From: a virus
Reading direction: 5' to 3' (one strand)
Length of the DNA: 16,501 nt
UHGV virus genome: UHGV-0096653
The first letter of the stretch is position 1, and each line of letters begins with the position of its first letter. Below, one piece after another: positions 1 through 13,874 of the stretch. Under the pieces are notes generated by a model. That model made no database searches and had not been told where the DNA came from. It worked only from the letters and a program-made list of their open reading frames with translations. The position numbers were made by a program, and so were the translations under genes.

Positions 1-589
1 CCCACTGGCGCTTTTTAGGGCTGAATACAACCGCATCAGGATGGCGAGTTAAAAAATCCTGTTCATCCGTCTGCGTGTCCGGTTGCGAAGCGTCCGGACG
101 AGAAGGGTTTTTTTCTGACGGATCATGTTTTGATTTTACTGACGGATCCCCGCCAGATTCTGACGGGTCAAAACTGGTTTTTTTGGTGGATTCCGACGCC
201 TCAAATTTTGAGGGGTCAATTTTTGACGCATCAGATTTTGACGGTTCAGATTTTGATGTGTCAGATTTTGACGGGTCAGAATCTGACAGTTGAGAAAATG
301 CCGCTGCCTGAAGCTTCGCAACGTTAAGCTGATAAACATTCGACGCATTGCGGTTACCCTGGCGACGCGCCTTACGCGTTAACCAGCCTTCTGCTTCCAG
401 CCGTGCGATAGCCGTTCTGACGGTACTCATCCCCGCGCCAATCTGACGGGCAATGGTTTCAATTGATGGCCAGCACACACCTTCGTCATTACTGAAATCA
501 GCCAGGCGGGCCATAATTGCCACGCTGGATAATTTCATGCCTGATGCAGCGCAACCATCCCATACATAGCCGGTTAATTTAGTGCTCAT
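1..589 (-). CDS. Phage replication initiator-like protein (lambda O-like role), 3' end beyond window
   Basis: Minus-strand frame open from ATG at 589-587 to the window edge (absent from ORF track because no stop is in the window). Translation starts MSTKLTGYVWDGCAASGMKLSSVAIMARLADFSNDEGVCWPSIETIARQIGAGMSTVRTAIARLEAEGWLTRKAR, a winged-helix DNA-binding N-terminus, followed by pentapeptide repeats (DPSKS-like) encoded by tandem 15-bp DNA repeats. Sits after cro/cII-like genes as lambda O does. Confidence 0.6.
   Translation of the reverse strand, partial: MSTKLTGYVWDGCAASGMKLSSVAIMARLADFSNDEGVCWPSIETIARQIGAGMSTVRTAIARLEAEGWLTRKARRQGNRNASNVYQLNVAKLQAAAFSQLSDSDPSKSDTSKSEPSKSDASKIDPSKFEASESTKKTSFDPSESGGDPSVKSKHDPSEKNPSRPDASQPDTQTDEQDFLTRHPDAVVFSPKKRQW
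201..290. repeat. Six tandem 15-bp direct repeats (consensus TCAGATTTTGACGGG), iteron-like; candidate origin inside the initiator gene
   Basis: Head-to-tail units at 201, 216, 231, 246, 261, 276; degenerate copies also at 128-182. Iterons embedded in the initiator gene is the lambda ori/O arrangement. Confidence 0.6.
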
Positions 590-598
590 GACCGACCT

Positions 599-937
599 CT
601 ATTTCCCTGAATTTACGACGAAACTGTTCGAGCGGACTGAAGCATTCATGTTCATAGCCTTCACGGAGGTAGATAACCCGTTGTGTTTCCGGCTCCCAAC
701 GAATGACTCTGACGGGCACTCCGTAGTGATCTTTGAACCAGCGGTTAACTTGTCGCAAAGGACTGTCTCCTTCTGCCGGTTGAAATCACCCACAGCCCAC
801 TCTGCAAAGCTGTGGGTTACAATTTCCCTGTCACCTGGTACATTCACTGCATAGCAATACTCCACCTTCGCTTTTCCACCCGGTACAGGAAGTGCAATCA
901 GTTGCGAACGACGGTAGTGTGTTGTTAAACTGTTCAT
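599..937 (-). CDS. Hypothetical protein (112 aa), translationally coupled to upstream CII-like gene
   Basis: ORF track; its ATG (937-935) overlaps the TGA (936-934) of the upstream gene as ATGA; same strand as the early operon. No recognisable motif. Confidence 0.4.
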
Positions 938-1524
938 GCGTTAGTTTCTCCACAACCAGAAGCAATCGACGCCACGACGCCCGGAGCTGCACACTCGCGG
1001 GCGTTACTCTTTTCTGGAGCGCAAAAGATTTTGTAGACCAGTGCTGCATGCTCCTGGAGCTTCGAAATTGACAGATACAACTCATCATTAATTGCTGTCT
1101 GCTCGTGTGGCTCCACTACCCCATCTTCGATTGCCGAACGAATCTGCTTTGAGTAACTCCCGATCTGTTCGATGACTTCCAGCAGGCGCTGGTTAATATC
1201 GGCGTTGTCCACATCCTCGACGTCAGGAAGAGACACAAAGACGCCATTTGCAGACTGCGCCACAGCATCAGCAATGAAGTGAGTGCCACCAGCACGCTGT
1301 AAAACCATTGCCCATCCCAGCGGGAAAATCTGATCGCCATCAGCACGAAGGCGGTTAAATAATGCGTTCTCTGTTACATCCAGCCAGTCAGCTGCTTCAG
1401 CGTAACCACCCGGCAACGTTGCGATAGTTTTTCTGACAGCTTTCACGTACCACTCAGGCTGTTTTTCTACTTTCCAGTGATGCTTACCCACGGCTATCTC
1501 CTTAAAACTGTGGTTACTTTCCAT
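934..1524 (-). CDS. CII-like early regulatory protein (possibly CP76/YdaT-type), 196 aa
   Basis: ORF directly downstream of the Cro-like gene in the same operon, the position of lambda cII or Rac ydaT. Family assignment is by position and general resemblance only; the annotated start overlaps the cro-like stop by 11 nt, so the true start may be internal. Confidence 0.4.
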
Positions 1525-1762
1525 CTGATAAGTCTTTAATCTTTTGAAAAATATCTGGACGTAATTTTTCTTTTGATACGCCAGTGGTCATTTCAATAAA
1601 TATCGAGAGCTTTGCAGGGGGACGCTTTTCTCTGTTCAACCAGTTCCAGACATGTTGTTGCTTTACTAAACGACCACTGCTGGCTGTGAGCTTCCGAGCC
1701 AATTCTGATTGACCACCAGCCAGAGCGATTGCCTCTGATAAGGCTAATTGCTCAGGTGTCAT
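1514..1762 (-). CDS. Cro-like HTH regulator (YdaS-like)
   Basis: 82 aa with HTH segment AIALAGGQSELARKLTASSGRL; divergent from the CI-like repressor; good RBS (AGGAGA) before ATG at 1762; consensus TATAAT -10 upstream on the minus strand. Confidence 0.7.
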   Translation of the reverse strand: MTPEQLALSEAIALAGGQSELARKLTASSGRLVKQQHVWNWLNREKRPPAKLSIFIEMTTGVSKEKLRPDIFQKIKDLSDGK

Positions 1763-1784
1763 AGCTTTCTCCTATCTGTAAGTA

Positions 1785-1875
1785 GTAAAGTTGTTGATAA
1801 CTTCGATTATACAACTACAACAACTTTTATCACAACTTTTAGATGTTGGAAAGCTAAAACATAAAGTTGTAACCT
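1785..1875. promoter_or_regulatory. OR-like operator cluster with divergent promoters (PR-like for cro on minus, PRM-like for cI on plus)
   Basis: Repeated half-site AAGTTGT/ACAACTT at about 1788, 1811, 1820, 1833, 1864, including the imperfect palindrome AAGTTGTTGATAACTT. Minus-strand -10 TATAAT (complement of 1806-1811) with -35 TTGTGA (complement of 1830-1835), 18-bp spacer. Confidence 0.65.
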
Positions 1876-1899
1876 CAATAAAAACGAGGGGGATATGTT

Positions 1900-2586
1900 G
1901 TGAAAACATTGGCAGAAAGACTAAAAAGCGAAAGAGAAAAAGCAGGAATGAGTCAGGCGCAACTAGCTGAAAAAATTGGGCTTTCACAACAATCCGTAGC
2001 GAAAATCGAGAATGGAGAAACTCAACAGCCTCGGAAAATTAAAGAGATTGCTAAAGTGTTAGGGGTTTCTCAAAAGTGGTTGCAATTGGGCATTGAGGAT
2101 AACGCGTCTTTCCCAGACCTTGTTGTAAAGGAGGCTGAAAGTACAGCATTAGATCCTGACATTTTTGCAAACATTCCAGTCCTAGATGTCGAGTTATCAG
2201 CGGGTAATGGATGTTTGGCTGAAATAGTTGAATCAACTGTAGACTGGTTCCCGCTAAGAAGGATTGATTTAAGAAAAGCTGGTGTATGTGTCTCCAATGC
2301 AAAGATCGTAAAAATTTGGGGCAATAGTTTACTACCTGTACTTAACAATGGAGATTTTGTTGCTGTTGATGTTTCCCAAACGGTTCCTATTCGTGATGGG
2401 GATCTTTATGCCATACGTGATGGCGTATTACTTAGAGTTAAAATATTGATCAATTTACCTGACGGTGGTCTGATTCTAAGAAGTTTCAATAAAGATGAGT
2501 ATCCAGATGAAATTCTCACCTTCGAAGATAGGCGTTCCAGAATTCACGTTATAGGTAGAGTATTCTGGTCATCGCGCACTTGGTAA
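1900..2586 (+). CDS. CI-like phage repressor, N-terminal HTH plus C-terminal S24 (LexA-like) autopeptidase domain
   Basis: 228 aa; HTH MSQAQLAEKIGLSQQSVAKIENG; Ala-Gly cleavage site in ELSAGNG; Ser-Lys dyad context (WGNSLLP ... LLRVKIL); GTG start at 1900 preceded by GAGGGGG. Confidence 0.85.
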   Translation: MKTLAERLKSEREKAGMSQAQLAEKIGLSQQSVAKIENGETQQPRKIKEIAKVLGVSQKWLQLGIEDNASFPDLVVKEAESTALDPDIFANIPVLDVELSAGNGCLAEIVESTVDWFPLRRIDLRKAGVCVSNAKIVKIWGNSLLPVLNNGDFVAVDVSQTVPIRDGDLYAIRDGVLLRVKILINLPDGGLILRSFNKDEYPDEILTFEDRRSRIHVIGRVFWSSRTW

Positions 2587-2613
2587 TGCATCAAAAAACC
2601 TTCCTTCAGAAAT

Positions 2614-2718
2614 TTAGTTACCATTATTACCCGCCTTTTCAATCTTCCTCCCGTGATTTGAGAGTTTCCAATCACGGAAGGAAAGTGTCCCTTGTGTAAT
2701 TAAAAGCGCATCGTCCAT
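2614..2718 (-). CDS. Small hypothetical ORF (34 aa, MDDALLITQGTLSFRDWKLSNHGRKIEKAGNNGN)
   Basis: Strong SD AAGGAGG 5 nt upstream of ATG (minus strand); no recognisable domain; convergent with cI. Confidence 0.3.
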   Translation of the reverse strand: MDDALLITQGTLSFRDWKLSNHGRKIEKAGNNGN

Positions 2719-2772
2719 ACAACCTCCTTTTTTGATAACCCTTGCCCTCATTTCACATCCGTCAAAACCACA

Positions 2773-2830
2773 TAAAGTTGTTGACAACAACCAAAACAAC
2801 AACTAGATTACAACTTAAAGATGTTGCAGT
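2773..2830 (+). promoter_or_regulatory. PL-like promoter with second operator cluster
   Basis: -35 TTGACA (2781-2786), 17-bp spacer, -10 TAGATT (2804-2809). Carries near-copies of OR motifs: TAAAGTTGTTGACAAC (vs TAAAGTTGTTGATAAC at 1794) and ACAACTTAAAGATGTTG (vs ACAACTTTTAGATGTTG at 1843). Confidence 0.6.
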
Positions 2831-2924
2831 AACGAACAGGCAGGACGCCCACGAAGTAGCCGCCGGTGGCGTATGAATGACCGGATGATTCGTTAGCAAC
2901 AAAAAAGCGCCCTACAGGACGCTT

Positions 2925-2937
2925 TGCTCTTTAAAAA
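2925..2937 (+). promoter_or_regulatory. boxA-like element (TGCTCTTTAAAAA), possible nut-type antitermination site
   Basis: Close match to rrn/lambdoid boxA (TGCTCTTTAACAA / CGCTCTTA); lies about 120 nt downstream of the PL-like promoter on the same strand. Confidence 0.4.
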
Positions 2938-3090
2938 TCAGTAACCCTCACTTTGGGCCTGGACCTGGTGGCCTGGGACGAGGAGGAATATGAAAAGGCT
3001 CTATTGGTCGGCTCATTATCCAATCCTATTATGTCTCATTTCTTCGGTTTCGGTGGTTTCGGCTTCGGAGGTACATGTCCGTGAACTGGA

Positions 3091-3585
3091 TTATGCTTGT
3101 TGCTCATCATTAATATCCGTTAGTTCATTCTCTAGAGGTAGATCTCCCGCACACCAAGCTATAAATTTTTCTTTGGTTGTTAAATCGTACTTAGTTGGAA
3201 CACCAGCAAAAATACAGGCCCGAATGAAAGCCGCTCGTTCAAGTGATTTCCATGGATTACTATCAGTATCTTGGATTTTTAAATACCTAGCTTGCAACTG
3301 ATCTTCAGAAAGAGTATCAGACTCAATCAGCAGTCTTTTGTAATGTCTCGCTTGTTCTTTAGACATCCCAGCCTCCTGGCCGAACTGATAGACCAACTGA
3401 AGAACCGAAAGTACGGCAACAAACAAACCAAAAATAAATAAATTACTGTACGGGGCGAAAACTGAAAAACCGAGAACGATTAACATCAACGTTATTAATT
3501 TATCAATGCGAGTTAACAACGTGTAATTCATCTTCTCCAATACATAAGAGTAGTGAATATAAAATTTATAATCGTCTCTGGTCAT
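3091..3585 (-). CDS. Two-TM inner-membrane protein, candidate superinfection-exclusion (SieB-like) protein
   Basis: 164-aa ORF (probable start at internal ATG 3531 with GGAG RBS, giving MNYTLLTRIDKL...). Two hydrophobic helices (LITLMLIVLGFSVFAPY, LFIFGLFVAVLSVLQLVY) then a charged C-terminal domain. AT-rich relative to flanks; immediately beside the immunity region. Confidence 0.55.
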   Translation of the reverse strand: MTRDDYKFYIHYSYVLEKMNYTLLTRIDKLITLMLIVLGFSVFAPYSNLFIFGLFVAVLSVLQLVYQFGQEAGMSKEQARHYKRLLIESDTLSEDQLQARYLKIQDTDSNPWKSLERAAFIRACIFAGVPTKYDLTTKEKFIAWCAGDLPLENELTDINDEQQA

Positions 3586-3967
3586 ATTAGTCTCAGTTTT
3601 CCTTGGGTGGTTTTGGAGGAACTGGAGGCTTTTGTCTTAACGGCACATGCCTCTCCTCATACTTATCTACACATAGATCCATATAAATCCTTATCGTTGT
3701 TGGGGAGGGTTACATAATAACCAAATCCTTGTTGTTGGGGAATAACCAGGTCCACCTCGCCTGATGTGGCTAAAAGCAGGCACATAACAGCTAAGTATTT
3801 TCAACCAGAGAGAATCCTTAGCGTTGTGGTGAATGCGGCTCAGCGCACGCGGGTTAAGGTTGAGGCTGACAGTCGACCTTCTGTGGATACCCACCCGTCT
3901 GGTGTGCAACCTTCGCCAGGCACCGGGAGGCACCCGGCACCACAACTTTATGCTGTGTGTAGTCCTG

Positions 3968-4013
3968 GCGGTACCAGTTTGTACACTTGCTTCCGGCTGG
4001 TACCGCTCTTTTT
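3968..4013 (+). terminator. Rho-independent terminator
   Basis: Perfect 10-bp inverted repeat GCGGTACCAG ... CTGGTACCGC followed by TCTTTTT. Confidence 0.6.
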
Positions 4014-4150
4014 ACAAAACAGAGAAGAGCATCACCGGACGACGGGCTCATAACCCAATCCATCCGGGCGGCTGCCACCGCAGGTGTTCTTCTCTGTTTT
4101 GTGGAGAAACCAACCGACCTTGCAGGGTCGATATGATGAGGAGCAGCAAA

Positions 4151-4513
4151 ATGGCTAGCGAACGCAGTACTGATGTGCAGGCATTTATCGGGGAGCTGGA
4201 CGGCGGCGTATTTGAAACCAAAATCGGCGCAGTTCTCAGTGAAGTCGCTTCCGGTGTGATGAACACGAAAACCAAAGGTAAGGTCTCACTCAACCTGGAA
4301 ATCGAACCATTTGATGAGAACCGTGTGAAAATCAAACACAAACTCTCATATGTTCGCCCGACTAACCGCGGGAAAATTTCCGAAGAAGACACCACCGAAA
4401 CGCCGATGTATGTCAATCGCGGTGGTCGCCTGACTATTCTGCAGGAAGACCAGGGACAATTACTGACTCTTGCCGGTGAACCTGACGGAAAACTCCGCGC
4501 AGCAGGTCATTAA
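4151..4513 (+). CDS. yfdP: YfdP-like hypothetical protein (120 aa)
   Basis: GAGGAG RBS 7 nt before ATG 4151; first gene of an operon whose gene order and product lengths (120/274/178/120) match the E. coli K-12 CPS-53 yfdPQRST cluster as recalled from memory. Confidence 0.5.
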   Translation: MASERSTDVQAFIGELDGGVFETKIGAVLSEVASGVMNTKTKGKVSLNLEIEPFDENRVKIKHKLSYVRPTNRGKISEEDTTETPMYVNRGGRLTILQEDQGQLLTLAGEPDGKLRAAGH

Positions 4514-4578
4514 TATCGTTCTTAATTAACTGATTATTTATCTCATCACTGAATATCTTTATATAGTGAGGACTTATT

Positions 4579-5403
4579 ATGTCTCAGAACTTAGACGCAA
4601 CCGCAATTAATCAAATCCATGCCCTTATTTCTGCTCAGGGTGTTAATGAAATTATCAGTAAGATTGGTGCCGATGCTGTGGCATTGCCTGAGAATTTCCG
4701 CATTCATGATCTGGAAAAATTTAATTTAAATCGCTTCCGTTTCCGTGGTGCGCTTTCCACTGCCAGCATCGATGACTTTACCCGTTATTCTAAAGATCTT
4801 GCAGATGAAGGCACCCGCTGCTTTATCGATGCTGATAATATGCGTGCCGTCAGTGTACTTAACCTGGGTACTATTGATGAACCAGGTCACGCAGATAACA
4901 CCGCCACTCTCAAACTGAAAAAGACAGCACCGTTCTCTGCCCTGCTGTCTGTTAACGACGAGCGTAACTCCCAGAAGTCACTGGCAGAATGGATTGAAGA
5001 CTGGGCCGACTACCTTGTGGGCTTTGATGCTAATGGTGACGCTATTCAGGCAACAAAAGCGGCTGCGGCAGTCCGTAAAATCACGATTGAAGCAAACCAG
5101 ACCGCTGGTTTTGAAGATAATGACTTCAGCGGCAAACGCTCCCTGATGGAATCTGTCGAAGCGAAGACCAAAGACATTATGCCAGTGGCATTTGAATTTA
5201 AATGCGTTCCGTTTGAAGGTCTGAAAGAACGTCCGTTTAAATTACGCCTCAGCATTATCACTGGCGATCGTCCTGTACTGGTTCTGCGCATTATTCAGCT
5301 GGAAGCGGTGCAGGAAGATATGGCTAACGAATTTCGTGATCTGCTTGTTGAGAAATTCAAAGACAGCAAAGTAGAAACCTTTATTGGTACTTTCACCGCC
5401 TGA
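4579..5403 (+). CDS. yfdQ: YfdQ-like protein (DUF2303-type), 274 aa
   Basis: RBS GTGAGGA; length and operon position match yfdQ as recalled. Confidence 0.55.
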
Positions 5404-5530
5404 TTTCATTACTGCAAATGCCCCTGCGGGGGCATTTATGGAAACGTAATTAACTCAATAATCACCGGATGGTGAGGGCTTCCTTTTACCCAAACTCAGC
5501 GCGGTGCAGCGCATATACGTGGAGAACAAA

Positions 5531-6067
5531 ATGTCATTTATTAAAACTTTTTCCGGGAAGCATTTTTATTATGACAAGATAAATAAAGACGACATCGTGA
5601 TTAACGATATCGCGGTTTCCCTTTCAAATATCTGCCGCTTTGCCGGTCATCTTTCTCACTTCTACAGTGTCGCCCAACATGCGGTGCTTTGCAGCCAGCT
5701 GGTGCCGCAGGAATTTGCTTTTGAAGCGTTAATGCATGATGCAACAGAAGCGTATTGCCAGGACATCCCCGCACCACTGAAACGCCTTCTTCCTGACTAT
5801 AAACGGATGGAAGAAAAAATAGACGCCGTAATCCGTGAGAAATACGGGTTACCCCCAGTTATGAGTACGCCCGTGAAATATGCCGATCTTATCATGCTGG
5901 CAACCGAACGCCGCGATCTCGGGCTTGATGATGGCTCTTTCTGGCCTGTACTGGAAGGCATCCCGGCAACAGAGATGTTCAACGTGATTCCACTGGCACC
6001 GGGCCATGCCTACGGGATGTTTATGGAACGTTTTAACGAGTTATCGGAGTTACGCAAATGCGCATGA
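5531..6067 (+). CDS. yfdR: HD-domain phosphohydrolase, YfbR/YfdR-type 5'-deoxynucleotidase
   Basis: 178 aa from ATG 5531 (GGAG RBS). HD signature: H in FAGHLSHFYSVAQHAV and HD in ALMHDATEAY. Confidence 0.7.
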   Translation: MSFIKTFSGKHFYYDKINKDDIVINDIAVSLSNICRFAGHLSHFYSVAQHAVLCSQLVPQEFAFEALMHDATEAYCQDIPAPLKRLLPDYKRMEEKIDAVIREKYGLPPVMSTPVKYADLIMLATERRDLGLDDGSFWPVLEGIPATEMFNVIPLAPGHAYGMFMERFNELSELRKCA

Positions 6068-6420
6068 ATGTTTTCGAAATGGAAGGGTTTCTTCGCGGGA
6101 AATGTGTACCGCGAGATCTGAAAGTGAACGAAACAAATGCTGAGTACCTGGTACGTAAATTCGACGCGCTTGAAGCTAAATGTGCGGCACTGGAAAACAA
6201 AATAATACCAGTGTCAGCTGAACTGCCACCAGCAAATGAAAGTGTTCTGTTATTTGATGCTAACGGAGAAGGCTGGCTGATTGGCTGGCGTTCTCTCTGG
6301 TACACCTGGGGACAAAAAGAAACCGGAGAATGGCAGTGGACATTTCAGGTCGGGGACCTTGAAAACTTCAATATCACTCACTGGGCAGTAATGCCAAAAG
6401 CGCCGGAGGCTGGAGCATAA
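6058..6420 (+). CDS. yfdS: YfdS-like protein (DUF551-type), 120 aa
   Basis: Start overlaps the yfdR-like stop; length and position match. Confidence 0.5.
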   Translation: MRMNVFEMEGFLRGKCVPRDLKVNETNAEYLVRKFDALEAKCAALENKIIPVSAELPPANESVLLFDANGEGWLIGWRSLWYTWGQKETGEWQWTFQVGDLENFNITHWAVMPKAPEAGA

Positions 6421-6773
6421 TGACCACATTTACCAATAAAGAACTGATTAAAGAAATCAAAGAACGAATCAGCAGCCTAGAGGTTCGAGACGATATTGAG
6501 CGCCGTGCTTATGAAATTGCTCTGGCATCGCTAGAAGAGGAGCCGGTGGCATGGCTGCATTCAGAAAATGGCTTAGGTATTCCGGCAATAACGAGGAGTA
6601 AAAACATTGCTGACAGTTGGTTATCAAAGGGCTGGTATGTTCAGCCGCTATATATAGCCAAGCCAGTGCCGGTGGTGCCAGATGCTCGTCCGTCTTTAAA
6701 TAATGGCATAGTCGGCTTTGATGAAGGCTGGAACGCCTGCCGCGCCGCCATGCTTAATGGGAAAGGAGAGTGA
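6420..6773 (+). CDS. yfdT: YfdT-like hypothetical protein, 117 aa
   Basis: TAATG stop/start overlap with previous gene; position in operon. Confidence 0.45.
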   Translation: MTTFTNKELIKEIKERISSLEVRDDIERRAYEIALASLEEEPVAWLHSENGLGIPAITRSKNIADSWLSKGWYVQPLYIAKPVPVVPDARPSLNNGIVGFDEGWNACRAAMLNGKGE

Positions 6774-6774
6774 T

Positions 6775-7038
6775 ATGGCAACTTTAACAAAAAAAGAACG
6801 GGCATGGTTGAACGAATTACAGGACGTTCTTGATCGCTGCCCATCACCGAAAAAAATTGGTTTTTACACCATTGGCGATAAAAGCATTTACCTGTATGAC
6901 CTGCGCCGCATGGATGAAATCATGGAGGCTCTTGATAATCGTTCGTCAATGGATTGGTGTGTTGCTGTCCATGATATGAATGCAGGGTTTGATGAAAAGA
7001 TTTTGTTCCCCTCATCAGTTGAAAGCACAGCAGGATAA
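6775..7038 (+). CDS. Small hypothetical protein (87 aa), last gene of the operon
   Basis: Strong RBS AAAGGAGAG before ATG 6775 (track start 6718 is a less likely upstream extension); followed by a terminator. Confidence 0.5.
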   Translation: MATLTKKERAWLNELQDVLDRCPSPKKIGFYTIGDKSIYLYDLRRMDEIMEALDNRSSMDWCVAVHDMNAGFDEKILFPSSVESTAG

Positions 7039-7073
7039 GGACCCAGCAAATATACACAACCTATAAAACACTA

Positions 7074-7098
7074 AAGCGCCTCAGGGGCGCTTTTTGTT
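7074..7098 (+). terminator. Rho-independent terminator
   Basis: AGCGCC-TCAG-GGGCGCT stem-loop followed by TTTTT. Confidence 0.7.
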
Positions 7099-7200
7099 TG
7101 CACAAAAGTGCACAAATTTGCACAATTTTTTTGAACGACTTTTTACCCTTCCGGCCCGCATGGCGGCTGGATCCGTCAAGGATCCGTGCGTGCACAAAAA
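7099..7200. repeat. Phased TGCACAA repeats and GGATCCGT direct repeat; candidate protein-binding array (packaging or regulatory site)
   Basis: TGCACAAAAG / TGCACAAATT / TGCACAATTT at exact 10-bp period (7099-7128); a fourth TGCACAA at 7191; GGATCCGTCAAGGATCCGTG at 7168-7187. Confidence 0.5.
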
Positions 7201-7496
7201 AACGCGTTTTTTCTGCGCGCAGGTGACGGGGGAACAGCCCGCGTTTCAGGGGGTAAATAGCATTCCCTGAACGATGTCGCAGAGACACAACAGAATGGCC
7301 ATATTTCTCACGCTGAGCATGAAAAAGGCGTGAGGGCTTTTGATTTGATGGGGTGAAAGGTAAGGCCGTCAAAATCGCACTGAGGCAGCGAGAACATGCA
7401 GTCAACGCGGTGGAATTGCGTAAGAGTCTGACCGTCGATGGTGGCGATAAACTGGAAGGCGTCGTGAAATTATCTGATTGATACAGGAGCTGGAGA

Positions 7497-7525
7497 GCCG
7501 GGGCATAAATTTTTTATGCCCCGGC
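7497..7525. other. Near-perfect 29-bp palindrome / strong hairpin
   Basis: GCCGGGGCATAAA-TTT-TTTATGCCCCGGC; no flanking U-tract on either strand, so not a canonical intrinsic terminator. Confidence 0.5.
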
Positions 7526-7624
7526 GAAGCAGCAGACAAGCGAAGCGCGTCAGCGATACGGCACCTTGCCGACCATACTTCATAAGTGCAAAATACGAGC
7601 AAAGAAATCAATGGAGGCTGTCTT

Positions 7625-8149
7625 ATGGTCATTAATTACAAGCAGTTAAGAGAAAAACGGGAGCAGGTAAAGGAGAGCTTTCGCCGCAATGAAGATCTGA
7701 CCCCGCTTGTACGCCTTGCCCAGGGCATTGTTGATGCTTATGAAATCTCGCTGGAGCTGCCATCACAGACCTGGACAGATAGCGACGGTAATCGCCAGCA
7801 TTACGTTTCATGCGGACTGGAAGCAGCCGAAGGATTTCGCAGAATGCCTTTATCCCAGATCCCTGCCGCTACCCCCAAAGCACGGGGCAGCAATGATGAG
7901 CGAAAACTGACTTTTAGTATTGAAACGGTGGTTGACGACACACCTGGCGAAGTCGCGTTCGTGCACACGCCTGTTTCGATCGCAATGTATAACGATGAAA
8001 TACAGGTTCGCGTTAATAATAATATCGTGCCACTTAAAGAAGGTAATTCACCCTACACCACCGTTTGTGAAGCCATTCAATATTACGTTCTCTCTGAAAT
8101 TGATAATCTCAAGCCTGACGGCACCCAGAAAATGGTTCAACTCTGGTAA
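7625..8149 (+). CDS. Orphan hypothetical protein (174 aa), function unknown
   Basis: GGAGG RBS 7 nt before ATG 7625 (track start 7586 is a GTG extension); ends at a bidirectional terminator shared with the portal gene. No motif recognised. Confidence 0.6.
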   Translation: MVINYKQLREKREQVKESFRRNEDLTPLVRLAQGIVDAYEISLELPSQTWTDSDGNRQHYVSCGLEAAEGFRRMPLSQIPAATPKARGSNDERKLTFSIETVVDDTPGEVAFVHTPVSIAMYNDEIQVRVNNNIVPLKEGNSPYTTVCEAIQYYVLSEIDNLKPDGTQKMVQLW

Positions 8150-8181
8150 AAAGGACAGCCCCATCACGGGGCTGTTTTTTC
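8147..8181. terminator. Bidirectional rho-independent terminator between the orphan ORF and the portal gene
   Basis: CAGCCCC-ATCAC-GGGGCTG stem-loop with TTTTTT on the plus strand and a T-run on the minus strand; the portal stop codon lies in the loop. Confidence 0.7.
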
Positions 8182-9210
8182 ATCAAGAAGAGCATAAGAG
8201 TTAAAACGGATCACCTCTTCGCCAAGCCAGTCATTGATGTGCTTCATAGCCTCCATGACGGGCATCAGCTCGTTAATTGCGTAAACCCGCGCTGCCTTCT
8301 CCACATCGCCAAACGCACTTTTTTCGCCCGGCATCGCCCCCATCAGTTGCGGCGGAACGCGGTGCGCAGCCAGCACATCATCACGGGATGCCGCCTTAAC
8401 ATTCATGAATTCATCTTTTGCGGTGATCTGCTGGAACGGCAAAATTTGCACCCCCTCTTTGCCCCCGTTGGGCGCATGAATGAGCACGTTTTTAAACGCA
8501 CCACCACCACGTGCCCCCTGTAGCGTTTCTTTCAGGGAGTCCATGCTTTCGCGGTTTACCTGCGCTGCACCGATGTAGATGATGCACCCGGCGTGGGATC
8601 CGTTGTCGTAGTACAGTTTTCTGAACATGTCCGCCGAATGAGAAAGGCTGGCCGAGAGTAATGCGCCAAGATATTCCGGCATGCCGTAGATTTCCTGGTT
8701 AATATCCGGATTCATCAGGTGGCACACTTTGCCAGGACGAAACTGAAACGCGTCCTTGCCATCCTGCACATACCACCATGATTCAAGATCGCTTCCGCGT
8801 CGCATGTATTTCGCCAGTGCGTGCCGTAATTTAAGCGGTTCGCCGAGCATATTGCTTCGAAGCTCAAGGTATGCGTTACCGAACACAAACCAGTCCAGCG
8901 CCAGCGCCGAGAAATCCTGCCGGGAAAGCAGCGGGTGCGGGATGTAGCAACCGAGTAATACATTGCGCTTAAAGTAAAGCGCAGACTGATGCCAGGACGT
9001 TTGCCGGGCAGCTCTTGCCAGACCGTACCAGTCCACCGGTGTTTCATACCACCGCCCGTTATCAGCACAGTACATATTGTCCAGCAGGTCATGCCCGGTC
9101 AGGCGATAAGGACCATCAAATGTGAATGCACTGAGCGATGATTCTTTCCTGAGCGCATCAGCGAGATCAATGCGTGAACTCATGCGCACTTTTTTATTTT
9201 TTCTGCTCAT
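8164..9210 (-). CDS. Q: P2-type portal protein (gpQ-like)
   Basis: 348 aa; size and position immediately downstream of, and overlapping, the terminase large subunit on the same strand, as in P2 Q-P. Confidence 0.8.
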   Translation of the reverse strand: MSRKNKKVRMSSRIDLADALRKESSLSAFTFDGPYRLTGHDLLDNMYCADNGRWYETPVDWYGLARAARQTSWHQSALYFKRNVLLGCYIPHPLLSRQDFSALALDWFVFGNAYLELRSNMLGEPLKLRHALAKYMRRGSDLESWWYVQDGKDAFQFRPGKVCHLMNPDINQEIYGMPEYLGALLSASLSHSADMFRKLYYDNGSHAGCIIYIGAAQVNRESMDSLKETLQGARGGGAFKNVLIHAPNGGKEGVQILPFQQITAKDEFMNVKAASRDDVLAAHRVPPQLMGAMPGEKSAFGDVEKAARVYAINELMPVMEAMKHINDWLGEEVIRFNSYALLDEKTAP

Positions 9211-10961
9211 CAGAACTCCATAACCGTGAAACGCTCGTTTTCTCCTTCGCCGCCAATTGGTTCGTTAATGACAGCAAGCATGGTTGCCCACGCAAGGTCG
9301 CCGTGGCTGATCCCCCTCGCGCGGTCCGTTTCGTAAGTGATAAAGCCGCCCGGTGTTTTCACCTTACGCACGGCGTTAAAGGCTGCGACCAGCTCGCGTT
9401 CGGCGCGATCGTATTCCCACCGCCCGGCGCGCATTATTTGCAGCATTTTCAGTACCAGCGACCGTTTTGATGACAGCGTGAAGGTGTACGGAATAGCAGC
9501 AGGGAAAAACCGTTTCACTATCTGATAAACAGCCTCCCCGTTCCCGCCTGTCACATCAATGCCGATGTGTTCCACGTTGTAGCGACACGTGAACTCTTCA
9601 ATGACTCTGGCCTGTTCTTCAAACTCCAGCCCCTGAACGCGTCGCGTCTCCACCGTTCGAAAACGGCCTCCAGGAACAGCCGGAGGAACCACCACGGACA
9701 CAGCGCCGCTGTCGCCGTTTCCACTGCTGCCGTTTGCGTCATACCCAATCCATACCGGACGATTCCCCATCGGGCGGGGAGCAAAAGGTTTCCAGTCTTT
9801 CCAGTCGTCGTATCCGTCAACACCACAGCCAATCAGGATATTCAGGTTAAATGCCGATTCCCCTTCGCGGACAAACTCACACATATAGAGATTGAGGAAC
9901 TCGTCTTCGGTGTTTTCATCACGAATTTCATCAATATCGGTGTGTTTCCAGCCGTGATTAACCACATCTTCCAGCGTGACAATTTGCCGCCACGTCCGGT
10001 CAGGGCAGATAAGCCCGTTATGCAGCGTTTTCCAGTCCACAGAAAAACGCTGGCGTTTATGCGAGGCCTTTTTCTCGTTCCAGCGGTCGCCGTTCCAGTA
10101 GGCGTATGCCTCGTGCGTTTCGGTGGATGGCGTGGAGAAGTAGGTGCGCCGCAGTCCGCTGAGGGTTGCCATAGCGCCAGCCACCTTGCGCAGTTCAGCA
10201 AAGCGACTGACCCAGAAAAATTCATCAAAATAAAAATTGCCCGTGTAGGACTGTGCCGTCGCAGCAGAAGTACCAAGAAAATGCAGCTCTGCGCCGTTGG
10301 AGAGGATGATTTTATCGCCCCCTTTCAGCTCCACATCAACTTCAGATGCAGCCTCCTGAATAATGCTTTTAAACTGGAACGCCTGACGACGCGACGCAGA
10401 CAAAAAAATCTGGTTACGCTGGTAAGGTTGCGCCACATCGTCACGCAGCGCCATCAGCAGTGCTTCCTGAGCAAAATACCAGGTCGCCCCAATCTGTCGG
10501 GATTTCAGGATCATCCTGTTACGTATCCCGGCCTCCCTGCAAAGGGTCAGGGAGTCAAACCAGCCCCGCTGATGCCACTCCAGCCTGCTGATGATTTTTT
10601 CCCGCAGTGCGGCAATCTGTTCCGGCGTGAAATGATTTTTGAGTTTTTTCGCCCGGCTTTTCTTTCCTGTGGCCGTCGCATCCGGCTGGCCATCATGCAG
10701 TTTTTTAAGCTGCCGGGTCAGCAGGTCTATTTCCTTGAAGTCACCACCTGTTTTATTCTGTTTTTCAGTAAGCTGGATGAGGCGCGAATCGATGGACTGC
10801 GTGACACGCTGCACGGGTGGCGTTTCATCCCACTGGTCGCGTTTTTTCCACGCATAAATCGTGTTCGGGTTTATTCCCATCAGACGTGATATTTCTGCGG
10901 GCGGATAACCCTGCCAGTAAAGTTGCCGCGCACGCTGGCGCACAAAAGCGTCCTGAATCAT
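9210..10961 (-). CDS. P: P2-type terminase large (ATPase) subunit (gpP-like)
   Basis: 583 aa; N-terminus MIQDAFVRQRARQLYWQGYPPAEISRLMGINPNTIYAWKKRDQWDE typical of P2-family gpP; divergent from the O-N-M-L operon. Confidence 0.85.
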   Translation of the reverse strand: MIQDAFVRQRARQLYWQGYPPAEISRLMGINPNTIYAWKKRDQWDETPPVQRVTQSIDSRLIQLTEKQNKTGGDFKEIDLLTRQLKKLHDGQPDATATGKKSRAKKLKNHFTPEQIAALREKIISRLEWHQRGWFDSLTLCREAGIRNRMILKSRQIGATWYFAQEALLMALRDDVAQPYQRNQIFLSASRRQAFQFKSIIQEAASEVDVELKGGDKIILSNGAELHFLGTSAATAQSYTGNFYFDEFFWVSRFAELRKVAGAMATLSGLRRTYFSTPSTETHEAYAYWNGDRWNEKKASHKRQRFSVDWKTLHNGLICPDRTWRQIVTLEDVVNHGWKHTDIDEIRDENTEDEFLNLYMCEFVREGESAFNLNILIGCGVDGYDDWKDWKPFAPRPMGNRPVWIGYDANGSSGNGDSGAVSVVVPPAVPGGRFRTVETRRVQGLEFEEQARVIEEFTCRYNVEHIGIDVTGGNGEAVYQIVKRFFPAAIPYTFTLSSKRSLVLKMLQIMRAGRWEYDRAERELVAAFNAVRKVKTPGGFITYETDRARGISHGDLAWATMLAVINEPIGGEGENERFTVMEF

Positions 10962-13073: not shown

Positions 13074-13874
13074 ATGATTACTCCTGCACAACAACACTGG
13101 CAGAACGTGATGGCACAGCGCGCAGGCCAGGCGAATGAAGGTGTGGACCACGCCGCGCGTACCGCGCATGAAGAGGTGCTGTATCGTCTGCGTCTGGCAC
13201 AGGCCAGGCTAAAGGGCGTACAGGCCAGAAGCGCGAAAGCCGCCATCAAAAAAGAGTTGTTGCCGGACTTTTCCGGCTGGATTGAGGGAACGCTGGAGAC
13301 TGACGGCGGGCAACAGGACGAAGTAATTGCCACGCTGATGGTGTGGGCGATTGACTGCGGCGATCTTCCGCTGGCGCTGCGTATTGGTGCATATGTGGTC
13401 CGTCACAACCTCATCATGCCGGATAACTTTGGCCGTACTGCTGCCACGGTACTGACCGAAGAAATCTGCAACCCGGTACTGACGCAGGCCGGGACGGATG
13501 CCGACGCGGATTTATCCGCCTTTATCGAACCACTGGACACACTTTGGGAAATTGTCGCCAACCAGGACATGCCGGACGAAGTGCGCGCCAAATTATGCAA
13601 GGCGTGTGCCTTTGCCCGTCGTGGCCTGACCGATGCAGACAACATGGCCTCATCACTGAAGCTGCTGCGCGAAGCGATGCACCTGAACCCGAACGCAGGT
13701 GTGAAACGCGAGATTGCAACCCTTTCCCGCGCCCTGAAAAAAGCCGATTCCGCAGCCGCACCAGAAGACGCCAGCACACCGCAGGCGCAGGACGAAAGCA
13801 GCAAAAGTAAAAAGACAACGCAGAAGCCTGCAACACGAAAAACCACCGCGACGCAGAAGGCAAAGCGCGGTTAA
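13074..13874 (+). CDS. M: P2-type terminase small subunit (gpM-like)
   Basis: 266 aa; MITPAQQHW... and DMPDEVRAKL match recalled P2 gpM (MTSPAQRHM..., DMPDEVRAKL); basic C-terminal tail. Confidence 0.8.
   Translation: MITPAQQHWQNVMAQRAGQANEGVDHAARTAHEEVLYRLRLAQARLKGVQARSAKAAIKKELLPDFSGWIEGTLETDGGQQDEVIATLMVWAIDCGDLPLALRIGAYVVRHNLIMPDNFGRTAATVLTEEICNPVLTQAGTDADADLSAFIEPLDTLWEIVANQDMPDEVRAKLCKACAFARRGLTDADNMASSLKLLREAMHLNPNAGVKREIATLSRALKKADSAAAPEDASTPQAQDESSKSKKTTQKPATRKTTATQKAKRG

Follow-up and report, generated by a model that had tools for sequence, protein, structure and literature searches.

Between a gene that ends at position 7038 and an orphan gene that starts at 7625, virus genome UHGV-0096653 carries about 580 bp of DNA containing short phased repeats, and the question that this locus raises is what that DNA does. 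By the window we mean the whole stretch of 16,501 nucleotides that was analysed. A first-pass annotation had offered a cosB-like terminase site, a partition site, or the promoter or leader of the orphan gene, without choosing among the three. We conclude that positions 7097-7266 are very probably the cos packaging site of a P88-type (Xuanwuvirus) P2-family prophage, so that the first of these suggestions fits the TGCACAA repeats and their surroundings. The evidence consists of homology in layout and position to mapped cos sites, conservation of the repeats in register, linkage to the portal and terminase genes, and sharing of the site with satellites. The site is a sequence-divergent example of a type of element that is already known, and it had not been annotated before; the papers on P88 and phiSM make no mention of cos, and reviews give no detail on the repeats of P2. 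The 580 bp are not the single object that was first described; they are a composite of an upstream terminator, the ∼170-bp cos, a lineage-specific spacer that includes a palindrome, and the left edge of an inserted cassette.

Phased repeats and associated elements

TGCACAA does occur, as first reported, three times at 10-nt steps with a fourth copy nearby (R1-R4, at 7099-7105, 7109-7115, 7119-7125 and 7191-7197), and the direct repeat GGATCCGT is likewise present, at 7169-7176 and 7180-7187; the coordinates given here include small corrections to the features as first listed. The sole further copy of TGCACAA on either strand of the whole 16.5-kb window is a fifth one at 13085, and 0 of 20,000 shuffles of 7040-7624 yielded any 7-mer in triplicate at 10-nt spacing. 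From left to right, the elements of the proposed site are as follows.

7099-7125 (+): R1-R3, three TGCACAA, at 123, 113 and 103 nt to the left of the place where the cut is inferred; proposed as the array that terminase recognises (cosB-like) and as the left limit of cos
7126-7168 (+): spacer rich in T (T7 and T5 runs), which may serve to bend or space the DNA, then a short inverted repeat
7169-7187 (+): two copies of GGATCCGT, 11 nt apart; a P88-lineage feature
7187-7221 (+): R4 (at -31) within a 15-nt inverted repeat (7187-7201 and 7207-7221)
7222-7240 (+): inferred cohesive-end segment (cosN), GGTGACGGGGGAACAGCCC, placed by homology to the P2 overhang and by distance to the TGCA motifs
7241-7266 (+): right flank of cos (GCGTTTCAGGGGGTAAAT...), delimited by the identity profile between window and satellite

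The short inverted repeat, CCGC-ATG-GCGG at 7156-7166, lies 3' of the T7 and T5 runs, and short inverted repeats are found at the matching position in 186, in phiT5282H and in the set of P2/186-type sites described below.

Comparison with mapped cos sites

The first-pass annotation had proposed an alignment to the P2 and 186 cos regions, and this alignment, with the annotated 19-nt overhangs of P2, 186 and P4 set to position 0, recovered the same layout of TGCA-type motifs. Counted from the first overhang base, P2, P4 and 186 have TGCA(T) motifs at -123/-124, -111, -101 and -29, and the window has TGCACAA at -123, -113, -103 and -31 relative to GGTGACGGGGGAACAGCCC. A satellite in E. coli (L008) and phiT5282H have TGCAC at -123, -113, -103 and -31 from GGTGACGGGGG, as in the window, while a more distant E. 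coli prophage (L007) retains the motifs at -123, -103 and -31. Past the fourth repeat, both groups have an inverted repeat directly adjoining the cut segment; in the window this is the 15-nt one.

No P2-like overhang had been found by eye, and indeed a direct search with the P2 overhang, allowing up to 3 mismatches, gave no match; the homologue GGTGACGGGGGAACAGCCC at 7222-7240 was found through the layout and through intermediates. It is identical to the P2 overhang, GGCGAGGCGGGGAAAGCAC, at 13 of 19 positions, and the corresponding segment of the L007 prophage, GGTGACGGGGGGAAAGCCC, is intermediate, with 15 of 19 identical to P2. Given the failure of the direct search, the relationship between GGTGACGGGGGAACAGCCC and the P2 overhang is a distant one. 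The Ralstonia phage phiRSA1, a relative of P2, has the mapped overhang GGTGAGGCGGGGTCCAAC, starting with GGTGAGGCGGGG (PMC5694545).

A sample of P2/186-type loci, fetched through the capsid gene and hence independently of cos, contained 35 distinct sites, 34 of which have TGCAT at -29. Further TGCAT clusters lie at -120 to -124, -110/-111 and -100/-101, and the intervening sequences are unrelated. Because these 35 sites share the layout, three phased repeats plus one are a family-wide property of P2-type cos, of which the window carries, on this comparison, the P88-type version. GGATC/GGTC pairs lie at about -58 to -38 in the P2/186-type sites, and the GGATCCGT pair may be the P88-lineage version of a common GGNTC...GGNTC module. 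The P2-family 55-bp core (as defined by Ziermann and Calendar 1990, taken via PMC5694545) has a left repeat, an inverted repeat and a CGC-rich right flank; the window has this layout, with low sequence identity to the P2 core, and R4 with its inverted repeat is the counterpart of the left half of the core (TGCATTAAAACC..., inverted repeat).

The resemblance to the cos sites of P2, 186 and P4, which have 19-nt 5' cohesive ends, can be set out in full. In all of them the site lies 3' of the portal gene, beside an accessory-gene hotspot, and the order is the same. Three phased TGCA-type repeats (about -120, -110 and -100) come first, then a spacer that holds a short inverted repeat and a GGNTC pair, then the fourth repeat near -30 with an inverted repeat after it, and last the G-rich cut segment and a CGC-rich right flank. 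The gpM and gpP terminase genes are homologous, and the site is common to satellites. The differences are that the repeat is GCAT in P2, 186 and P4 but GCACAA in the window; that the repeats are spaced by 10-13 nt there and by strictly 10 nt here; that three of the four repeats in the window are 2 nt further from the G-rich segment; that relative to P2 the overhang homologue is only 13/19 identical and the terminase subunits 34-43% identical; and that cos lies ∼330 nt from the portal stop codon in P88-type phages, as opposed to ∼170-180 nt in P2 and 186. Furthermore, the ends of P2, 186 and P4 have been mapped, whereas those of the window are placed from sequence. phiRSA1 and its relatives also belong to the P2 family, and share the GGTGA...GGGG start of the overhang and the presence of extra genes between cos and portal (PMC5694545), but they infect another host group.

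Likeness to the lambda cos (cosQ-cosN-cosB; R3-I1-R2-R1, with gpNu1 and IHF) is by analogy: a short element in several copies near the nick site, a probably bent spacer between them, and a small terminase subunit that would read them and so position the nuclease. The lambda cosB is on the Nu1 side, whereas the repeats in the window are on the future right end of the genome, away from the portal and terminase genes, and homology of sequence or protein with lambda is not expected. The P2 terminase has been reported to prefer circular monomers.

Inferred position of the cut

The homology to the P2 overhang and the distance to the TGCA motifs suggest a cut within a few nucleotides of 7222-7240, which we consider rather likely, though with less assurance than the identification of cos as a whole. 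A cut at a different place, about 7143|7144, with the TGCACAA triplet on its left and the GGATCCGT pair on its right, is suggested by the linear 37.1-kb record NC_049391 (P88_4B11), which ends ...TGCACAATTTTTTTGAACGAATTTT and begins TGCCCTTCCAGCCCGCG..., corresponding to 7143|7144 of the window. We regard this as very unlikely. The DNA at 7143|7144 is A+T-rich, is without the dyad-symmetric G+C-rich flanks of the P2 cut and is unlike any known P2-family overhang, whereas the G-rich homologue of the mapped P2, 186 and phiRSA1 overhangs is at 7222. Moreover, the starts of assembled-genome records are often arbitrary, and no other record breaks there.

Several observations nevertheless weigh against a cos site cut at 7222-7240. 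No mapped virion ends were found for any P88-type phage and no phage record starts at the inferred cut; NC_049391, the sole record to break in the region, does so at 7143|7144 and not at 7222. Three records whose surrounding DNA is nearly identical to the window have deletions in or at the edge of the inferred overhang (7222-7243), of 7 nt in Chuche (L194), 1 nt in 503458 (L195) and 5 nt in P88_4B11 (L001). These may be real polymorphism or assembly artefacts at physical ends; as they stand, the length and sequence of the inferred overhang are less fixed than in P2. The register is itself uncertain by a few nucleotides, given the 13/19 identity and the 2-nt offset of three repeats, and a shift to 7220-7238 would put three of the four repeats at their P2 distances. 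Finally, gpM and gpP are only candidate readers of the repeats, and GGATCCGT may be dispensable, being absent from satellite L008.

Conservation in register

The 16-nt seed GCGCAGGTGACGGGGG, which excludes the repeats, retrieved 105 distinct contexts from IMG/VR. In 96 of these the neighbourhood was P2-like or satellite, or the sequence did not extend far enough to judge; the other 9 were non-phage or unrelated. [TC]GCA lies exactly at -123, -113, -103 and -31 in 73, 70, 76 and 86 of the 96, respectively, and the layout was found in none of the 9 unrelated contexts. When the contexts are grouped at 85% identity, giving 35 clusters, the repeats, the T-run that follows R3 and the right flank stay in gapless register; the T-run is kept in the consensus, the R4 region is among the highest-information blocks of the profile, and the CGC and GGG columns of the right flank are kept as well. 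The matches of the same seed in species-representative genomes were mostly chance ones in G+C-rich organisms and served as a negative control: 119 of the 121 matches listed hold 0-1 of the four positions, and among the matches listed only two, in Serratia and Symbiopectobacterium, hold all four, ∼270 nt from a portal gene. The TGCACAA repeats therefore exceed chance, being in register across many diverged relatives and missing from chance matches to the seed.

Mean pairwise identity among 47 distinct P88-type contexts is ∼0.3, the random level, left of -130 and ∼0.8-1.0 from -125 onwards. Since identity jumps exactly at the first repeat, to ∼0.8-0.9 over R1-R3, variable cargo reaches up to that point; together with the satellite comparison described below, this boundary delimits the functional cos to about 7097-7266. 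One IMG/VR locus (L091, ∼3160-3300), which is possibly from a defective prophage, has a P88-type cos that lacks ∼82 nt between the second and fourth TGCACAA; the deletion looks like the product of recombination between repeats, and the portal region next to this cos is divergent.

Linkage to the packaging genes

A P88-type prophage (Xuanwuvirus, Peduoviridae) in E. coli FORC_069 matches the window at 98.7% identity from 6729 to the right end, and the genes for packaging are those listed here.

8164-9210 (-): portal, Pfam Phage_portal, 44% identical to P2 Q
9210-10961 (-): large terminase, Pfam Terminase_5, Terminase_6N and Terminase_6C, 43% identical to P2 P
13074-13874 (+): small terminase subunit, gpM homologue, Pfam Phage_term_smal, phrog_74, 34% identical to P2 gpM

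Portal and large terminase on the minus strand are followed by scaffold, capsid, small terminase and head completion on the plus strand, and the packaging and head proteins show 32-44% identity to their P2 counterparts Q, P, O, N, M and L. The large terminase has a gpP-type helix-turn-helix at its N-terminus, and the gpM homologue is a candidate reader of the TGCACAA array. This order of modules is shared with P2, 186 and the intact FORC_069 prophage. The stretch thus occupies the P2-family position, with accessory genes on one side, the 3' end of the portal gene on the other and the terminase genes close by; the annotated cohesive ends of P2 and 186 are ∼170-180 nt past the portal stop codon, and the cos-proximal region of P2, between gpA and gpQ, is an accessory-gene hotspot (Rousset et al., PMC9122126). 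Of 5426 complete E. coli genomes, 1140 carry the stretch, with nothing annotated beneath it, and it also occurs in plaque-forming phages such as phiSM.

In nearly all cos-like loci that are long enough, a portal gene 67-99% identical to that of the window lies on the minus strand at +200 to +350, or at +945 when the orphan cassette is present. P2/186-type sites are paired with portals that are only 44-48% identical to the window's. With GCAT beside the 44-48% portals and GCACAA beside the 67-99% portals, the type of repeat follows the clade of the packaging genes.

This observation bears on whether the repeats, though associated with cos, are read by a host factor or act structurally by bending the DNA, and are not a determinant of terminase specificity. 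TGCA-containing motifs and T-runs could bend DNA, GGATCCGT contains GATC (Dam) sites, and binding of the repeats by terminase is itself inferred only. A site for a host factor would, however, be expected to be constant, as all of these phages infect the same hosts, and instead the motif differs by terminase clade (GCAT in P2/186-type, GCACAA in P88-type) and satellites carry the motif of their presumed helper clade. We therefore consider this explanation unlikely, and reading of the TGCACAA array by terminase to be likely.

Satellites with the same site

An island adjoining hpt in E. coli ETEC1747 (L008, 1-10700) contains an 81% copy of window 7099-7264. Its genes encode an Icd-like protein, a Toprim primase, an integrase, an Ogr/Delta zinc finger, a 236-aa unknown protein and a P2-family capsid homologue; the last is 423 aa long and 35% identical to the window's gpN, with an N-terminal extension of ∼120 aa. 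The same cos layout is found in four closely related satellites (L135-L138) and in a divergent one (L050), and no portal or terminase gene was found in any of the six. Similarity between the window and L008 is confined to -125..+45. Within this segment the two are 100% identical over R1-R3 and lose similarity over the GGATCCGT pair, which is absent from L008 and partial in phiT5282H. Sharing of the site with satellites, as in other P2-family cos, thus extends to all six of these satellites. That the similarity is limited to a cos-sized segment parallels P4 and P2, whose only common region is cos (PMC9122126).

The satellites also bear on the suggestion that the phased TGCACAA repeats are a partition centromere (parC-like) for upstream genes of ParM/ParR type. 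Phased direct repeats are typical of centromeres, and genes for ParM and a partition protein lie ∼2 kb upstream of the stretch in P88, PhiR44_2 and the FORC_069 prophage. In the R1 parMRC system, however, parC is immediately upstream of parM, as is normal, and here the repeats are ∼2 kb downstream of parM/parR where those genes are present and also occur without them, so that a ParMRC centromere is rejected. The same array, in the same register, is found in relatives that lack parM (phiT5282H, along with many loci that gave no parM match), in satellites and, as TGCAT, in P2, 186 and P4, for which we know of no par genes. The array tracks the portal gene and the cut site, whereas its distance to parM varies from ∼1.5 to 5 kb, and the window, the left part of which is lambdoid, has no parM at all. 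We give a partition function almost no credence, and that part of the first-pass annotation does not stand. The ParM-like and ParR-like genes that P88-type phages, unlike P2, have between gpA and the cos-proximal cargo (L002, 969-2244; L134, 17921-19199) hint at a plasmid-like stage or a stabilisation function.

A model for recognition and cleavage

If the site is cos, the terminase would consist of gpM (13074-13874) and gpP (9210-10961, with its N-terminal helix-turn-helix), and would recognise the four TGCACAA. Three of these (7099-7125) would share one helical face, with the fourth, at 7191, ∼seven turns away and just left of the cut, and with the T-rich spacer and the GGATCCGT pair between the triplet and R4. 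Staggered nicks in or around GGTGACGGGGGAACAGCCC (7222-7240) would give P2-like cohesive ends, and the genome would be packaged through the portal encoded next door. Satellites with the same ∼170 bp would be packaged by the same enzyme. The binding protein, the exact positions of the nicks and the length of the overhang are inferred.

Sequences flanking the proposed cos site

Beyond the proposed cos, the stretch and its right-hand neighbourhood contain the following features.

7073-7098 (+), hairpin 7073-7093: rho-independent terminator (9-bp G+C-rich stem, 3-nt loop, T-run), from a terminator scan
7267-7553 (+): spacer between cos and portal, non-coding, with a 42-codon pseudo-open reading frame (7353-7481) inside; P88 lineage only
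7497-7509 and 7513-7525 (no strand assigned): perfect palindrome, 13+3+13, folding as a strong hairpin
7554-8188 (+): inserted cassette of ∼630 nt between palindrome and portal, from alignment to P88

The terminator, whose fold is -16.3 kcal/mol (z = -4), serves the upstream cargo gene ending at 7038 and sits immediately to the left of cos. The DNA between 7038 and 7625 holds no credible gene, in agreement with the earlier view of this stretch as non-coding with only junk-like open reading frames. The frames 7061-7405(-) and 7353-7481(+) had no PHROG match. Across 46 distinct relatives the latter varies alike at codon positions 1, 2 and 3 (20, 21 and 19 sites), and in 5 of the 46 it is interrupted by stops or frameshifts; with no PHROG match for either, and even codon-position variation in the 42-codon frame, both are ruled out as genes. 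A search of the whole window against Rfam at the gathering threshold returned no family, and with E <= 1 over 6950-7700 the sole match was a chance one to SprD, at 17.7 bits against a threshold of 100.

The spacer at 7267-7553 is 92-96% conserved, and in P88-type phages only. The palindrome within it is 29 nt long and without a U-tract, as first described, although it proves to be perfect (100% complementary) and not near-perfect. It folds at -31.6 kcal/mol (z = -8), and neither strand has a run of T/U. It lies outside the shared cos, being missing from satellites and from other genera. In P88_4B11 it is ∼25 nt 3' of the portal stop codon, the place of tQ in P2 and tW in 186; only this position matches tQ/tW, and in view of the missing U-tract a canonical intrinsic terminator is ruled out. 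A G:T mismatch in the arm (GTCGGGG...CCCCGGC) marks the commonest variant, seen in 28 of the 46 distinct relatives; this mismatch would pair as U.G solely in plus-strand RNA. In two relatives the palindrome is lengthened to 39 nt (GCTTCGCCGGGGCATAAA TTT TTTATGCCCCGGCGAAGC).

In the cassette, which some relatives have as well, lie the orphan gene (7625-8149, phrog_5091), whose ribosome-binding site is GGAGG, a canonical terminator at 8155-8175(-), and a new 3' end that takes the place of the final ∼25 nt of the portal gene. Alignment to P88 covers only 7099-7557 of the window (459 nt, running straight into the portal gene) and 8189 onwards. The place between cos and portal is a second insertion point, with a spacing of +340 without the orphan gene and +945 with phrog_5091; other spacings seen are +914 (L063) and +615 (L076).

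It is with this cassette in mind that a promoter, operator or leader for the orphan gene, or a regulatory site for neighbouring accessory genes, has to be considered. The stretch is upstream of the orphan gene on the same strand, a weak promoter-like match (TTGCCG-17-CAAAAT) is found at 7566-7594, and cos-proximal promoters do exist: in P2 (NC_001895, 33424-33480; L006, 625-680) the annotated old-tin mRNA starts (33424/33426) lie ∼27 nt from the first TGCAT, so that the P2 old promoter overlaps the repeat array. Yet the repeats are 430-530 nt upstream of the orphan gene and are equally conserved in phages that lack it (in P88 the portal follows directly), and no sigma-70-like site was detected in 7040-7624 at the threshold of the tool used. 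As the cassette starts at ∼7554, a promoter of the orphan gene's own is more likely to be in 7554-7624. A promoter or leader role for the array, the last of the functions first suggested, is most improbable, and the equal conservation of the array in P88-type phages without the orphan gene tells against it in particular.

The left part of the window

The window is an ENA metagenome contig (ERZ1303812, NODE_1134) with ∼3x coverage. Its left 6.7 kb (1-6760) is early-region DNA of a lambdoid prophage resembling SfV/SfIV, with cII-like, cro-like, cI, YfdP, YfdQ and YfdR genes, and an 87-codon gene (6775-7038) is common to the lambdoid and P88-type parts. Where genomes carry the lambdoid prophage, what comes after that gene is further early genes and an integrase, and not cos. 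The lambdoid/P88 junction was found in 0 of 5426 complete E. coli genomes and is probably an assembly chimera across the shared repeat of ∼300 nt; otherwise, it would be a rare recombinant.

Implications for P2-family packaging

A cos site at 7097-7266 would assign a function to an unannotated stretch that about a fifth of complete E. coli genomes carry, and would locate the likely genome ends of P88-type phages. To our knowledge, DNA recognition by P2-type terminases has still not been worked out, and a layout of four repeats that is fixed in position but specific to each clade in sequence offers a testable model of it. We put forward, tentatively and as a possibility somewhat short of probable, that the phased TGCA-type array, with its three repeats plus one held at constant distances from the cut, encodes the specificity of P2-family terminases; GCAT (P2/186/P4) and GCACAA (P88-type) would then be two mutually exclusive dialects of packaging. 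If this is true, each dialect would have its own satellite lineage, that of P88 including P4-like satellites with a P2-family capsid gene of their own; the type of cos would predict which helpers each satellite can use, and would partition helper-satellite networks in Enterobacterales. It would also provide a cosmid and transduction system orthogonal to, and usable beside, P2/P4. Cosmids with the P2/P4 cos are already in use for antimicrobial delivery (PMC9942202), and a second, probably orthogonal cos could serve the same end.

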